A DNA stretch of 64,000 bases from Dictyostelium discoideum (Eukaryota): assembly GCA_000004695.1 (NCBI GenBank), contig CM000150.2:2976001-3040000 (forward strand), written 5' to 3'. Below, piece after piece: positions 26,229 to 58,180 of the stretch. Each line of letters starts with the position of its first letter. Within the stretch, counting starts at the first letter, position 1. The position numbers and the translations under genes are program-made. Below the pieces are notes generated by a model that was not told the DNA's origin, searched no databases, and was given only the letters and a program-made list of their open reading frames with translations.

Positions 26229-29200
26229 ATGGAAGAAAATAGTAATAAATTTGAACAAGAATTAAAAGAAATTGGCCAAGATAGAAATCAATTTCCGCAT
26301 ATAAGTGTTGAAGAATCTCTTCAAGAATTTGATTCATTCTCAAATAAAATCGAAAATGAATCAAAACAATTTGGAGCTCAAAAAGATCCAGAATCTTATA
26401 TGGCAGGTGGTGAAACTGAAGAAGATTTCAAATTAAGAAAATATTTTGAAAACTCTGAAAGAATGCATCTTGAAAATGGTGGTAATGAAAAAAAAATGGG
26501 TGTTTCCATTAGAAATTTAACTGTTGTTGGTCTTGGTGCCGATGCATCTGTAATTGCTGATATGTCAACTCCATTTTTTAGTATTTTAAATTTTTTTAAA
26601 CCATCATTTTGGTAAGTAAAAAAATGGTATTATTATTATTATTTTAATTTTAAAGTTTACTAATTATTATTATTTTTTTTTTTATTATTTATAGGACTAA
26701 AAAAACATCAACATTTGATATTTTACATGATGTTACAACATTTTGTAAAGATGGTGAAATGGTTTTAGTTTTAGGTAGACCAGGTGCTGGTTGTTCAACT
26801 TTATTACGTGTTATTGCAAATCAAACTGCATCATATGTTTCAGTTAAAGGTGATGTTAGATATGGCGGTATTCCATCAAAAGAGTTTGAAAGATATAGAG
26901 CTGAATCTATTTATACACCAGAAGAAGATTCACATCATCCAACTTTAACAGTTCGTGAAACTTTAGATTTTGCATTAAAATGTAAAACTCCAGGTAATCG
27001 TTTACCAGATGAAACTAAAAGATCTTTCCGTGAAAAAGTTTTTAATTTATTATTATCAATGTTTGGTATTGTTCATCAAGCTGATACTGTAAGTTTTCTT
27101 TTTTTTTATTTATTTATAAAATAATTTTTTTTTTTTTTATCTTTTGCTAATTACTTTTTTTTTTTTTCCTAAATAAAATAGATTGTCGGTAATGAATATG
27201 TTAGAGGTTTATCAGGTGGTGAAAGAAAACGTTTAACAATTACAGAAGCAATGGTATCATCAGCATCAATTACATGTTGGGATTGTTCAACTCGTGGTCT
27301 TGATGCAGCATCAGCATTTGATTATGCAAAATCAATTCGTATTATGTCTGATACATTACACAAAACAACAATTGCATCATTTTATCAAGCATCCGATTCA
27401 ATTTATAATGTATTTGATAAAGTTTGTGTTTTAGAAAAAGGTCGTTGTATTTATTTTGGTCCAGTTGGTATGGCAAAACAATATTTTATGAGCTTGGGTT
27501 TCGATTGTGAACCAAGAAAATCAACACCAGATTTTTTAACTGGTGTAACAAATCCACAAGAACGTATTATTAAAAAAGGTTTTGAAGGTCGTACTCCAGA
27601 AACTTCAGCCGATTTTGAAGCAGCATGGAAAAACTCTGATATATATAGAGATCAACTTCAAGAACAAAAAGAATATGAAGAATTAATTGAAAGAACTCAA
27701 CCAAAAGTTGCATTTGTTCAAGAGGTAAAAGATGAAAATAGTAAAACCAATTTCAAAAAATCACAATATACTACAAGTTTTATTACGCAAGTTGTTGCAT
27801 TAACTAAAAGAAATTTTCAATTGATTTTAAATGATAAATTTGGTCTTTTCACAAAATATCTTTCAGTATTAATTCAAGCATTTGTATATTCATCTGTTTT
27901 CTATAATATGGCAAGTGATATTAATGGTTTATTTACTAGAGGTGGTGCAATTCTTTCAGCTGTAATTTTCAATGCTTTTCTCTCTGTTGGTGAAATGTCA
28001 ATGACTTTCATTGGTCGCCGTGTCTTACAAAAACATAAGAGTTATGCTTTATATCGTCCATCTGCTTTACATATTGCACAAGTTGTTAACGATATTCCGT
28101 TTACATTACTTCAAGTATTCTTATTTTCAATTATTGCATACTTTATGTTTGGTTTGGAATATGATGGTGGTAAATTCTTTATTTTCAGTTTTACATTGGT
28201 TGGTGCAAGCTTAGCATGTACAGCACTTTTCAGATGTTTTGGTTACCTTTGTCCATCGATGTATATCGCTCAAAATATTTCAAATGTTTTCATCATTTTC
28301 ATGCTTACCTATTCTGGTTATACAGTACCAATTCCAAAAATGCATCCATGGTTCAGTTGGTTTAGACATATCAATATCTTTACCTATGCATTTAAAGCAA
28401 TTATGGCAAATGAATTTGAAGGTAAAGAATTTAATTGTTTAGAATCTGCAATTCCATATGGTCCAGCATATCAAGGTTCAGAGTTTGATGCATATAGAAT
28501 TTGTCCATTAGGTGGTATTGAACAAGGTAGTCTCTACTTTAAAGGTGAGTTTTATATGGATAAAACTTTAAGATTCAAAGAAGGTGAAATGTCACAAAAT
28601 GTCATCATTGTTTATTGTTGGTGGATTTTCTTTGTAATTTGTAATATGCTTGCAATGGAATATATTGATCATACAAGTGGCGGTTATACTCATAAAGTTT
28701 ACAAAAAAGGTAAAGCTCCAAAAATGAATGATGTTGAAGAAGAAAAACAACAAAATGCCATTGTAGCAAATGCAACAAACAACATGAAAGATACTCTTCA
28801 TATGGATGGTGGTATTTTCACATGGCAAAACATTAGATACACTGTCAAAGTTCCAGGTGGTGAAAGATTATTATTAAACAATATTGAAGGTTGGATTAAA
28901 CCAGGTCAAATGACAGCTTTAATGGGTTCATCGGGTGCTGGTAAAACAACTTTACTCGATGTTTTAGCAAAGAGAAAAACTTTGGGTGTTGTTGAAGGTG
29001 ATTCACATTTAAATGGTAGAGAATTAGAAATTGATTTTGAACGTATTACTGGTTATGTAGAACAAATGGATGTCCACAATCCAGGTTTAACAGTTAGAGA
29101 AGCATTACGTTTCTCTGCAAAATTACGTCAAGAACCAGAGGTATCATTAGAAGAGAAATTTAAATATGTTGAACATGTTTTAGAAATGATGGAAATGAAA

Positions 29201-30724
29201 CATTTAGGTGATGCATTAATTGGTACATTAGAAACTGGTGTTGGTATTTCAGTTGAAGAAAGAAAAAGATTAACAATTGGTGTTGAATTGGTTGCAAAAC
29301 CACAAATTCTTTTCCTTGATGAACCAACATCTGGTTTAGATGCTCAATCATCATATAATATCATTAAATTTATTCGTAAATTAGCAGATGCAGGTATGCC
29401 ATTAGTTTGTACAATTCATCAACCATCATCAGTATTATTTGAACATTTTGATCGTATTCTTTTATTAGCTAAAGGTGGTAAAACAGTATATTTCGGTGAT
29501 ATTGGTGAAAAATCAAAAACTTTAACATCATACTTTGAACGTCATGGTGTTCGTCCATGTACTGAGAGTGAAAATCCAGCAGAATATATTTTAGAAGCAA
29601 CTGGTGCAGGTGTTCATGGTAAGTCTGATGTTAATTGGCCAGAAACTTGGAAACAATCACCAGAATTAGCAGATATTTCAAGGGAATTAGCAGCATTAAA
29701 AGAACAAGGTGCACAACAATATAAAATAAGAAGTGATGGACCAGCAAGAGAATTCTCACAATCAACATGGTATCAAACTAAAGAAGTTTATAAACGTTTA
29801 AATTTAATTTGGTGGAGAGATCCATACTATACATATGGTTCATTCGTTCAATCAGCACTTTGTGGTTTAATTATTGGTTTTACATTTTGGAATCTTCAAG
29901 GTTCAAGTAGTGATATGAATCAAAGAATTTTCTTTATTTTCGAAGCACTCATGTTAGGTATCTTATTGATTTTCGTTGTAATGCCACAATTAATTAGTCA
30001 GCGTGAATACTTTAAGAGAGATTTTGCCAGTAAATTCTATTCATGGTTCCCATTTGCAATTTCAATTGTTGTTGTAGAATTACCATTCATCGTTATTTCA
30101 GGTACAATTTTCTTCTTTTGTTCATTCTGGACCGCAGGATTGGATAAAACTAGTGATAGTGAACAAACCTTTTACTTCTGGTTCATTTTCGTTATCTTTT
30201 TGTTTTTCTGTGTTTCTTTCGGTCAAGCAGTAGCAGCAGTTTGTATCAATATGTTCTTTGCAATGACATTGATTCCATTGTTAATTGTTTTCCTATTTCT
30301 TTTCTCAGGAGTTATGACCCCCCCATCATCAATTCCAACCTTTTGGAGAGGATGGGTGTATCATTTAAACCCATGTCGTTACTTTATGGAAGGTATTGTT
30401 ACAAATATTTTAAAAACTGTCGATGTTAAATGTTCATATGAAGATATGATCACTTTTACATTCCCAAAGAGTTATAATACTTGTCAAAACTACACTAGTG
30501 CTTTTCAATCATATGGACCATCCGGTTATGTTGAGAGTTCCATATTAAATGGTGAACCAGCCTGTAGTTATTGTATCTATAAAAATGGTGAACAATATTA
30601 CAAAACACTTGGTTGGTCAGATGATAATCGTTGGAGAAATGTTGGTATTATCATTTGTTTCTTTGTTTTCAATATTTTAATGGTTATCTTATTTGTTTAT
30701 TTAACTAGAAAAGGAAGTAGATAA
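26229..30724 (+). CDS. Full-size ABC transporter, G family, PDR type (NBD-TMD-NBD-TMD), copy 1; join(26229..26611,26695..27088,27182..30724), 1439 aa
   Basis: Three track ORFs are joined by two gtaagt introns, phase-checked (TG|G gives Trp; ..ADT|[18 protein letters not shown]). Both NBDs show Walker A (GRPGAGCST and GSSGAGKTT), signature (LSGGERKR and VEERKRL) and Walker B, and there are two 6-TM domains. Confidence 0.9.
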
Positions 30725-56500: not shown

Positions 56501-58180
56501 ATTACTGGTTATGTAGAACAAATGGATGTCCACAATCCAGGTTTAACAGTTAGAGAAGCATTACGTTTCTCTGCAAAATTACGTCAAGAACCAGAGGTAT
56601 CATTAGAAGAGAAATTTAAATATGTTGAACATGTTTTAGAAATGATGGAAATGAAACATTTAGGTGATGCATTAATTGGTACATTAGAAACTGGTGTTGG
56701 TATTTCAGTTGAAGAAAGAAAAAGATTAACAATTGGTGTTGAATTGGTTGCAAAACCACAAATTCTTTTCCTTGATGAACCAACATCTGGTTTAGATGCT
56801 CAATCATCATATAATATCATTAAATTTATTCGTAAATTAGCAGATGCAGGTATGCCATTAGTTTGTACAATTCATCAACCATCATCAGTATTATTTGAAC
56901 ATTTTGATCGTATTCTTTTATTAGCTAAAGGTGGTAAAACAGTATATTTCGGTGATATTGGTGAAAAATCAAAAACTTTAACATCATACTTTGAACGTCA
57001 TGGTGTTCGTCCATGTACTGAGAGTGAAAATCCAGCAGAATATATTTTAGAAGCAACTGGTGCAGGTGTTCATGGTAAGTCTGATGTTAATTGGCCAGAA
57101 GCTTGGAAACAATCACCAGAGTTAGCCGATATTTCAAGGGAATTAGCAGCATTAAAAGAACAAGGTGCACAACAATATAAACCAAGAAGTGATGGACCAG
57201 CAAGAGAATTCTCACAATCAACATGGTATCAAACTAAAGAAGTTTATAAACGTTTAAATTTAATTTGGTGGAGAGATCCATACTATACATATGGTTCATT
57301 CGTTCAAGCTGCACTATGTGGTTTAATTATTGGTTTTACATTTTGGAATCTTCAAGGTTCAAGTAGTGATATGAATCAAAGAATTTTCTTTATTTTCGAA
57401 GCACTCATGTTAGGTATCTTATTGATTTTCGTTGTAATGCCACAATTAATTATCCAACGTGAATACTTTAAGAGAGATTTTGCCAGTAAATTCTATTCAT
57501 GGTTCCCATTTGCAATTTCAATTGTTGTTGTAGAATTACCGTTCATTGTTATTTCAGGTACAATCTTCTTCTTTTGTTCATTCTGGACTGCAGGATTACA
57601 TAAAACTAGTGACGATGAACAAACCTTTTATTTCTGGTTCATTTTCATTATCTTTATGTTTTTCTGTGTTTCTTTCGGTCAAGCAGTAGCAGCAGTTTGT
57701 ATCAATATGTTCTTTGCAATGACATTGATTCCATTGTTAATTGTTTTCCTATTTCTTTTCTGTGGAGTGATGGTCCCCCCATCATCAATTCCAACCTTTT
57801 GGAGAGGATGGGTGTATCATTTAAACCCATGTCGTTACTTTATGGAAGGTATTATCACAAATATTTTAAAAACTGTCCGTGTCGAGTGCTCTGAAGAAGA
57901 TATGGCCATTTTTACATTCCCAAAGAGTTATAATACTTGTCAAAACTATACTAGTGCTTTTCAATCATATAAACCATCCGGCTATGTTGAGAGTGCTACA
58001 TTAAATGGGGAACCAGCATGTGGTTATTGTATCTATAAAAATGGTGAAGAATATTACGAAACACTTGGTTGGTCAGCTGATAATCGTTGGAGAAATGTTG
58101 GTATTATCATTGGTTTCTTTGTTTTCAATATTTTAATGGTTATCCTATTTGTTTACTTAACTAGAAAAGGAAGTAGATAA
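53557..58180 (+). CDS. Full-size ABC transporter, G family, PDR type, copy 2 (tandem paralog of 26229..30724); join(53557..53948,54171..54564,54638..58180), 1442 aa
   Basis: Identical exon/intron architecture and exon lengths for exons 2 and 3 (394 and 3543 nt). All motifs are as in copy 1. Exon 3 is about 97% identical to copy 1; exon 1 is about 70% identical. Confidence 0.9.

Follow-up and report, generated by a model that had tools for sequence, protein, structure and literature searches.

Concerted evolution interrupted by islands that selection keeps distinct is known from the GOT1 paralogs of Tigriopus (PMC3728101) and the CEACAM1 paralogs of ruminants (PMC7042247), and long-lived pairs of converting genes are known in mammals (PMC2720389). 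In these cases, paralogs are closer to each other within a species than to their orthologs, identity is mosaic, and the islands of lasting divergence are mostly non-synonymous and have been read as regions selected for distinct function. Here we describe a pair with the same properties, abcG14 and abcG11, two genes for ATP-binding cassette (ABC) transporters that lie in a 64,000-nucleotide (nt) stretch of Dictyostelium discoideum AX4 chromosome 1 (assembly GCA_000004695.1, contig CM000150.2, positions 2,976,001 to 3,040,000; hereafter the window). Unlike those pairs, abcG14 and abcG11 have unusually fine-grained islands, down to single codons; their copies are separated by about 23 kb of unrelated genes rather than arranged in strict tandem; and the same segment of the second nucleotide-binding domain (NBD2) is identical between the paralogs in each of AX4, the isolates ACTFIR and ACTFIZ, and D. 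dimigraforme.

We found that the pair is best explained by an old duplication and recurrent interlocus gene conversion, with protected islands under selection, a reading to which we assign a probability of roughly 85%. Both the phenomenon and the PDR family are known, and abcG11/abcG14 is a new, unusually clean and fine-grained example. A literature search that did not extend to the 2002 family paper returned no published account of the pair, nor any of gene conversion between ABC transporter genes in Dictyostelium, and Miranda et al. (2013) mention neither gene.

Mosaic identity of the two copies

The two genes lie on the plus strand, abcG14 at 26229-30724 (exons 26229-26611, 26695-27088 and 27182-30724; 1439 amino acids, aa) and abcG11 at 53557-58180 (exons 53557-53948, 54171-54564 and 54638-58180; 1442 aa). 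Their spliced translations match database proteins exactly, namely Q55DR1/XP_646070 (ABC transporter G family member 14) and Q55DQ2 (ABC transporter G family member 11), and thus the window, which is extremely AT-rich, is assigned to AX4 chromosome 1. Both genes are intact and have three exons, with GTAAGT at every donor and AG at every acceptor. Intron positions and phases are the same in the two genes and exon 2 measures 394 nt in both; the spliced translations also bear out the identical intron positions and the 3543-nt third exon reported in a preliminary description of this DNA. The spacing of about 27 kb given there agrees with the start-to-start distance of 27,328 nt, in the same orientation. 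That description called the pair tandem, which holds insofar as the copies are direct repeats; however, they are proximal rather than strictly tandem, because unrelated genes, at least eight of them, fill the 22.8 kb between them. These include a Ras-family GTPase gene, a tRNA-Glu gene, an Ipi1/TEX10-like gene, a CfaA/B/C-family gene, an acyl-transferase gene and a gene for a TPR protein. No other abcG fragment that might serve as a third conversion donor was found in the window. Over their whole length the two proteins are 92.8% identical. The next-closest homologues, abcG13, abcG10 and other PDR-type abcG paralogs of D. discoideum, are 66-74% identical and lie outside the window; they share family and architecture with abcG11 and abcG14 but are too diverged to be conversion partners, and the homologue hit list pairs them clearly, one to one, with genes of other species.

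A global alignment that included 3 kb of flanking sequence showed homology only from about the ATG to approximately 80 nt beyond the stop codon; the flanks are about 50% identical, which is the background for this AT-rich composition. Identity between these limits is far from even. Exon 1 is 84.5% identical (77% in its first half and 91% in its second), above the roughly 70% estimated previously, and exon 2 is 97.5% identical. Intron 1 measures 83 nt in abcG14 and 222 nt in abcG11, a difference of 139 nt, and can be aligned only over its last 25 nt or so, in keeping with the strong divergence already attributed to it; intron 2 is 93% identical. Exon 3 contains 155 differences in 3543 nt (95.6% nucleotide identity), and its protein identity is 94.2%, below the approximately 97% first reported. 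Exons 2 and 3 together differ at 165 nucleotides. At the level of codons, the AX4 pair shows 71 silent and 104 replacement differences, and these are clustered: one 150-nt bin of exon 3 holds 28 differences, and four consecutive bins hold none.

Two perfect tracts stand out. One, of 765 nt, covers NBD2 (28880-29644 in abcG14, equal to 56336-57100 in abcG11, both on the plus strand), and the other, of 257 nt, lies in the first nucleotide-binding domain, NBD1 (27302-27558 equal to 54758-55014, again on the plus strand). We placed the 155 exon-3 differences at random in 20,000 permutations, a GENECONV-type test, and found that the longest identical run had a median of 120 nt and a maximum of 352 nt, compared with the observed 765 nt (P < 5e-5). 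When third codon positions alone were considered, the longest identical run was 261 codons against a null median of 70 (P < 5e-5). These data rule out uniform divergence along the alignment with its flanks, and they uphold the mosaic pattern and the identity of the NBD2 segment that had been proposed; the peptides then quoted from the first transmembrane domain (TMD1) and from the last extracellular loop are both present in the translations. Of all segments, the 765-nt NBD2 tract has been converted most often and most recently. There are practical consequences as well: a knock-out construct for one gene can match the other perfectly over as much as 765 nt, and short-read variant calling and read mapping at both genes are affected.

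Concerted evolution across Dictyostelium genomes

A protein cluster at 90% identity lists 15 members: the AX4 pair, a single D. firmibasis protein, and both paralogs each from D. citrinum, from D. dimigraforme, from two isolates of 'D. cf. discoideum' and from two more of D. discoideum. We obtained DNA of both copies from D. dimigraforme, D. citrinum and the isolates ACTFIZ (D. cf. discoideum) and ACTFIR (D. discoideum), together with the abcG14 copy of D. firmibasis and the single close homologue of D. purpureum. An abcG11 of D. firmibasis is not among the 15 listed cluster members, a repeat look-up that started from other members gave the same 15, and no whole-database search was made for it. 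All of the retrieved genes other than that of D. purpureum share the three-exon structure.

We classified the two-state sites of a 1458-column codon alignment in two-species quartets, with site counts drawn only from four genomes that have both copies as DNA. Sites were scored as orthologous when the two abcG11 copies shared one state and the two abcG14 copies another, as concerted when both paralogs of one species differed from both paralogs of the other, and as conflicting otherwise. The AX4-D. citrinum quartet yielded 69 orthologous, 228 concerted and 3 conflicting sites (9, 155 and 0 for silent codons), the AX4-D. dimigraforme quartet 71, 232 and 3 (8, 165 and 1), and the D. citrinum-D. 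dimigraforme quartet 69, 263 and 3 (8, 199 and 1). The orthologous sites are essentially confined to alignment columns 1-150, the N-terminal extension, and to columns 451 to about 750, TMD1. In the species quartets, NBD1 contains at most one orthologous site, and NBD2 and the second transmembrane domain (TMD2) contain 0-5 per region, compared with dozens of concerted sites in each.

Synonymous divergence (dS, Nei-Gojobori) and trees of single regions gave the same picture. In NBD1 and NBD2, paralog dS is 0.015-0.058 in all four genomes, whereas ortholog dS between species is 0.23-0.39; ortholog non-synonymous divergence (dN) in NBD2 is 0.003-0.012. This combination of low paralog and high ortholog dS, from the comparison along the genes that the preliminary description had proposed, supports conversion tracts. 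In neighbor-joining trees of the N-terminus, abcG11 is monophyletic with 100% bootstrap support. In trees of NBD1, NBD2 and TMD2, by comparison, the D. citrinum pair and the D. dimigraforme pair each group by genome with 100% support, as does the ACTFIZ pair with 98-100% and the AX4 pair with 68% (NBD1), 98% (NBD2) and 99% (TMD2). We conclude that abcG14 and abcG11 evolve in concert. Constraint at the protein level cannot explain the near-identity, because silent sites and an intron are also affected. Interlocus gene conversion is the standard mechanism for such a pattern and the only one that fits the mosaic of tracts. Ongoing conversion had been offered earlier as one of two readings, correctly; its supposed restriction to the 3' two-thirds of the genes, however, does not hold, as conversion spans exon 2, intron 2, NBD1, NBD2 and TMD2, as well as TMD1 between small protected islands. 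GC-biased gene conversion was rejected: no signal of it was seen, third-position GC content (GC3) is not raised in converted segments, and the ratio of AT>GC to GC>AT changes is 147:43 for changes common to both paralogs and 112:39 for singletons.

Conversion is also still ongoing among D. discoideum isolates, with tracts that are polymorphic. In the segment of the NBD2 perfect tract, the paralogs are identical in AX4, ACTFIR, ACTFIZ and D. dimigraforme, though orthologs differ there, and the few differences between AX4 and ACTFIR inside the tract are carried by both copies. Over exons 2 and 3, these two D. discoideum isolates differ by 37 concerted sites. Transfer is seen in both directions: the abcG11 last loop of ACTFIR has acquired abcG14-type sequence, and in two isolates abcG11 states have partly replaced the 'VR...YV' states in NBD1 that are specific to D. 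discoideum abcG14. Ectopic conversion over about 23 kb therefore acts on a within-species time-scale.

The last extracellular loop illustrates this turnover. Across nt 3151-3450 of exon 3, the paralogs differ at 27 positions in AX4, 25 in ACTFIZ, 5 in ACTFIR and 2 in D. dimigraforme; in the loop proper, they are identical in D. citrinum and one nucleotide apart in D. dimigraforme. Because the paralogs are near-identical there in these two species, the loop differences of AX4 are a transient, lineage-specific state. Clusters of substitutions had been noted both in TMD1 and in this loop; both are present, but those of the loop are not conserved paralog differences. Between species the loop evolves rapidly (dN 0.11-0.35), and positive selection on it was rejected, as omega is 0.15-0.6 and never above 1.

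The arrangement of the locus bears on the age of the pair. A neighbourhood of about 48 kb is colinear between AX4 and both D. dimigraforme and D. citrinum, where both genes are in place approximately 20 kb apart, and the retrieved part of the D. firmibasis abcG14 side is colinear with the AX4 window. A syntaxin gene upstream of abcG14, and a TPR gene upstream and a gene of about 1400-1570 aa downstream of abcG11, served as synteny markers. Since both copies are syntenic in the other species, the duplication predates the divergence of D. discoideum, D. citrinum and D. dimigraforme. At the N-terminus, which is unconverted, dS is 0.25-0.34 between paralogs and 0.23-0.37 between orthologs of the three species, and it reaches 0.59-0.74 in the comparison with D. 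purpureum. D. purpureum has a single close homologue, which at the polarisable fixed sites matches abcG14 at 10 and abcG11 at 5; this homologue lies 1.9 kb from a contig end, and its downstream genes are unrelated to the AX4 locus. Given these dS values and the single D. purpureum gene, the duplication (or else the most recent homogenisation of the N-terminal region) probably took place shortly before the radiation of the three species and after the split from D. purpureum. An older origin could be hidden by conversion. Thus, abcG11 and abcG14 look like a young duplicate and are not, and dating or orthology calls from whole-gene trees go wrong for them. The same error is probable for other Dictyostelium gene families; ABC genes of 'uncertain orthology' were noted earlier in the comparison with D. 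purpureum.

Divergence islands and competing explanations

The domain order predicted for both proteins (Pfam ABC_trans_N, ABC_tran, ABC2_membrane, PDR_CDR, ABC_tran, ABC2_membrane) identifies abcG14 and abcG11 as PDR-type full-size ABCG transporters, with NBD1-TMD1-NBD2-TMD2 on one polypeptide. In abcG14, PF14510 (ABC_trans_N) scores 32.9 bits against a cut-off of 25.4 and PF06422 (PDR_CDR) 97.1 bits against 20.5; abcG11 is similar. The nearest solved structures, which align over nearly the full length, are Candida albicans Cdr1 (9iuk; E = 5.5e-272, aa 69-1435) and Saccharomyces cerevisiae Pdr5 (7p03; E = 5.1e-266, aa 89-1435). In the translations, the Walker A motif of NBD1 reads GRPGAGCST, with Cys for Lys, compared with the canonical GSSGAGKTT of NBD2, and the signature reads LSGGERKR in NBD1 compared with a degenerate ISVEERKR in NBD2. 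An asymmetry of the nucleotide sites has been described for Pdr5 (PMC8421411). The two Dictyostelium proteins thus resemble Pdr5 and Cdr1 in their reverse duplicated topology, in ABC_trans_N and PDR_CDR, and in their asymmetric nucleotide sites; they differ in being putative amoebozoan pumps known here from sequence, and the likeness concerns the proteins, not the evolutionary phenomenon.

Fixed differences between abcG11 and abcG14, present in all four genomes, occur at 35 codons, 33 of them replacement and 2 silent. An alignment of all 15 proteins showed the same fixed states in the additional isolates; the only exceptions at the listed TMD1 positions are N504 in D. firmibasis abcG14 and F568 in ACTFIW abcG14. 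In a McDonald-Kreitman-type table for the N-terminus and TMD1, fixed non-synonymous and synonymous differences number 31 and 2, compared with 115 and 247 within clades (Fisher P = 1e-12). The fixed differences therefore show a strong excess of replacements. Within TMD1, silent codons are mostly concerted (23-30, vs 4-6 orthologous), whereas amino-acid-variable codons are mostly orthologous (25-36, vs 9-16 concerted), and a fine map of this domain shows 15-22 switches of pattern in 360 codons.

The islands differ in size. The N-terminal island comprises aa 1-63 of abcG14 (26229-26417) and aa 1-66 of abcG11 (53557-53754), both on the plus strand, and is not homogenised: columns 1-100 show orthologous patterns almost exclusively, and paralog dN is about 0.13-0.16. 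It contains too few informative silent sites for homogenised flanks to be recognised there. At the end of exon 1 is a second island, on the plus strand, FSILNFFK in abcG14 (26577-26600) and YGLVKLFT in abcG11 (53914-53937), whose columns 125-132 are fixed in all four genomes. The densest block, with the 28 differences in one 150-nt bin, covers the first transmembrane helix (TH1), at aa 472-507 of abcG14 (27818-27925) and at 55274-55381 in abcG11, likewise on the plus strand. In this island of approximately 105 nt, silent as well as replacement sites are orthologous, and L481M, F482Y, T483S, A492G, S496A and S504T are fixed in all four genomes that the codon alignment covers. Further along TMD1 there are islands of only one or two codons (V528I, LL568/569AI, E585Q/G588A, V599L, I666L and K674L), with concerted silent sites within a few codons.

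We placed the helices by alignment to Cdr1 and by hydrophobic segments, so that the positions are inferred rather than taken from a model of either protein. On this placement, the protected residues fall in the N-terminal extension (14), the linker before TH1, TH1 (5), the TH1-TH2 loop, TH2 (1, V528I), TH3, the TH3-TH4 loop, TH4, the first extracellular domain (ECD1) and TMD2 (2). The substrate cavity of Pdr5 is flanked by TH2, TH5a, TH8 and TH11a (PMC8421411). The suggestion in the preliminary description that change is concentrated in substrate-contact regions is not supported as stated, as most fixed differences map to TH1, to the TH3-TH4 hairpin and to ECD1 and not to the cavity-lining TH2 and TH5a. 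We find the pattern best explained if conversion passes through TMD1 and the persistent replacements reflect selection against converted alleles, because the lasting differences are almost all replacements while the silent sites between them are homogenised.

In the history that we propose, a single duplication of about 4.6 kb produced the direct-repeat paralogs abcG14 and abcG11. It is older than the last ancestor shared by D. discoideum, D. citrinum and D. dimigraforme and probably younger than the split from D. purpureum. The copies, now about 23 kb apart, have since repaired or recombined against each other time and again by non-reciprocal interlocus gene conversion, presumably through homologous recombination/synthesis-dependent strand annealing (HR/SDSA) repair. 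Exon 2, intron 2, NBD1, NBD2 and most of TMD2 are in this way kept near-identical within a genome and remain free to diverge between species. The process is so rapid that both copies carry what distinguishes one D. discoideum isolate from another, and that isolates vary in their tracts. Homogenisation ends near the ATG and about 80 nt past the stop codon, where homology stops, and is resisted at the N-terminal extension and at the TMD1 islands (TH1, one TH2 residue, the TH3-TH4 hairpin and ECD1). There, purifying selection would remove converted alleles, and the two pumps would have distinct functions in these residues as well as distinct promoters.

Three other explanations dispense with conversion altogether. 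An assembly artefact, in which the reference had doubled one locus or partly merged two, would account for the long identical tract and for nothing else. The flanks of the two copies are unrelated, at the background level of identity, which rules out the assembly duplicate that the preliminary description had considered; the 165 differences in exons 2 and 3, the different first introns and promoters, and a two-gene arrangement on which six independent assemblies agree leave the idea with practically no chance. A recent and possibly lineage-specific duplication, with diversifying selection in TMD1 and the last loop and with identity reflecting youth, is compatible with the clustered silent and replacement differences of AX4 taken alone and with the one close homologue in D. 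purpureum. It had been the other reading put forward at the outset, and the cross-species comparison refutes it: in three or more other species or lineages both copies stand at conserved syntenic sites, paralog-specific residues are common across species, the last-loop differences are absent in D. citrinum and amount to one nucleotide in D. dimigraforme, and the 228-263 concerted sites per quartet could arise only by parallel mutation or if the gene had been duplicated independently into the same two places. Near-identity of the NBDs through extreme purifying selection and codon-usage constraint would fit their standing as the most conserved part of ABC proteins, and their low ortholog dN in NBD2. 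This, too, is refuted, as silent sites diverge freely between orthologs and hardly at all between paralogs, the run of identical third positions extends over 261 codons, non-coding intron 2 is 93% identical when intron 1 and the flanks cannot be aligned, and 155-199 of the silent sites per quartet are concerted.

A more serious contender accepts conversion and takes the islands to be neutral: once a segment had diverged enough, mismatch-repair anti-recombination and the intron-1 indel would keep it out of heteroduplex tracts, so that divergence would reinforce itself and the pumps would not differ in function. The N-terminal and TH1 islands are indeed the most diverged and do carry a few orthologous silent sites, the two first introns differ in length by 139 nt, and the protected TMD1 replacements are conservative. 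A neutral barrier, however, should keep silent differences at least equally well, and the fixed differences number 33 replacement to 2 silent compared with 115 to 247 within clades. Moreover, the single-codon islands (528, 568/569, 599, 666 and 674) have concerted silent sites 2-8 codons away, which a heterology barrier cannot explain, and the silent codons of TMD1 are mostly concerted. We therefore consider neutral islands unlikely, although a heterology barrier may contribute at the larger N-terminal and TH1 islands.

Several points nonetheless weigh against conversion balanced by selection. Some of the silent sites in the N-terminal and TH1 islands are themselves orthologous, and local divergence of about 14-23%, together with the length heterology of intron 1, could block heteroduplex formation without selection. 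Most protected TMD1 replacements are of the conservative kinds I/V, L/M, F/Y, S/T and A/G; one protected residue only lies in a helix that lines the Pdr5 cavity, so that a functional difference between the pumps is conjectural; and dN/dS on the inter-paralog branch does not demonstrably exceed 1. The molecular mechanism of conversion is likewise deduced from pattern. As for the sample, the site counts come from only four genomes, and the non-AX4 assemblies are unpublished-grade GenBank records, in any single one of which polishing artefacts between paralogs are possible, although six independent assemblies agree.

If selection against converted alleles is the cause, the protected positions offer a short, testable list of candidate specificity residues kept different between two otherwise interchangeable PDR pumps. 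It is also possible, and we propose it tentatively, that conversion erases every neutral difference and that the approximately 33 surviving residues form a naturally filtered map of the positions that distinguish the two pumps. Such a map would point mostly away from the cavity of TH2, TH5a, TH8 and TH11a, to TH1 and the outer-leaflet and extracellular side, and would hint that the specificity of PDR pumps for substrates or partners has a determinant that has gone unrecognised.

Upstream elements and neighbouring sequence

The two genes have different upstream regions. A conserved non-coding element of approximately 75 nt lies 0.3-0.5 kb upstream of abcG14 (25741-25812, plus strand) and contains cctgatgccaacacatcgcc. 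It is near-invariant in AX4, ACTFIZ, D. citrinum, D. dimigraforme and D. firmibasis, is specific to abcG14, and is more conserved than abcG14 silent sites although it sits inside a fast-evolving AT-rich spacer. RNAalifold gave -5.3 kcal/mol and no compensatory pairs, and thus no indication of a structured RNA at this site, and a conserved upstream open reading frame was rejected on account of a 1-nt indel. On its conservation, we consider it a candidate cis-regulatory element. Upstream of abcG11, conserved GC-richer islands at about 52738-53105 (plus strand) contain cctgatggcgatcaatggcacattgc; they are conserved among abcG11 orthologs and unrelated to the abcG14 element.

The partial motif that the preliminary description saw in both 5' flanks reduces to the heptamer CCTGATG, which reads ACATGATGG upstream of abcG11 in other genomes. 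CCTGATG and its reverse complement occur 2 and 4 times in the window, and each gene has its own conserved upstream element, so that we rejected the heptamer as paralogous or regulatory homology and regard it as a chance 7-mer. Rfam and ARAGORN found no RNA genes at the motif sites. The promoters are thus distinct and individually conserved, consistent with separate regulation. abcG14 has been reported as up-regulated during Mycobacterium marinum infection, and abcG11 is not listed among the up-regulated ABC genes; this transcriptome lends weak support to separate regulation. About 1 kb upstream of abcG14, we observed an Rfam Dicty_Class_I_RNA match at 25194-25250 (plus strand; 45.2 bits vs a gathering score of 41.5), and the Class I RNA motif CCTTACAGCAA also stands at the equivalent place upstream of the gene in ACTFIZ, D. 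citrinum and D. firmibasis.

Just 3' of abcG14, a stretch of about 2.9 kb (30800-33640) holds the open reading frame (ORF) of the Ras-family GTPase (31598-32125, plus strand) and a tRNA-Glu(UUC) gene (32411-32483, minus strand). Nothing equivalent to this stretch occurs in D. dimigraforme, D. citrinum or D. firmibasis, although their loci are colinear with that of AX4; the Ras gene is present in ACTFIR and ACTFIZ. It looks like a lineage-specific insertion or deletion.

Rearrangements were also seen in the isolates. In ACTFIZ (contig JBTAPI010000014.1), abcG11 and abcG14 are convergent and approximately 8 kb apart, compared with co-oriented and 23 kb apart in AX4, which suggests an inversion of the intervening block or an assembly mis-join. 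About 300 nt past the stop codon of ACTFIZ abcG11 (7902-8308 of the retrieved locus) lies a decayed, frame-shifted relic of the last 135 or so codons of an abcG11/14-type gene, with 74% aa identity; the AX4 window has none such, and the relic may be a scar of this rearrangement. In ACTFIR, the 2 kb 3' of abcG11 (6700-8649 of the retrieved locus) have no match to AX4 58230-60200, which holds the 3' end of a 1389-aa gene, and no gene was called there, which points to an insertion or rearrangement relative to AX4.

Some gene models of the family are unusual. In isolate ACTFIW (P0134/P0124 pair), the reading frame of the abcG14 model is disrupted in places and 10 aa are deleted across the NBD2 signature, and the abcG11 model carries a C-terminal extension of about 97 aa; these oddities reflect either errors of assembly or annotation or genuine inactivating changes in that isolate. 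In D. purpureum, the annotated last exon of DICPUDRAFT_149091 looks wrong (6642-6650 of the retrieved locus): when the sequence is read through the annotated donor it ends in ...YLTRKGSR*, the C-terminus common to all other family members. This gene has at least six introns, compared with two in the D. discoideum clade.

Downstream of abcG11, an ORF of 1389 aa from a GTG runs along the minus strand (58894-63063); it has no Pfam hit, is highly repetitive and is rich in F, Y and W. The gene is probably spliced and longer than the ORF, which is 82-91% identical at the nucleotide level in D. citrinum and D. dimigraforme, where the products called are 1520-1569 aa long.

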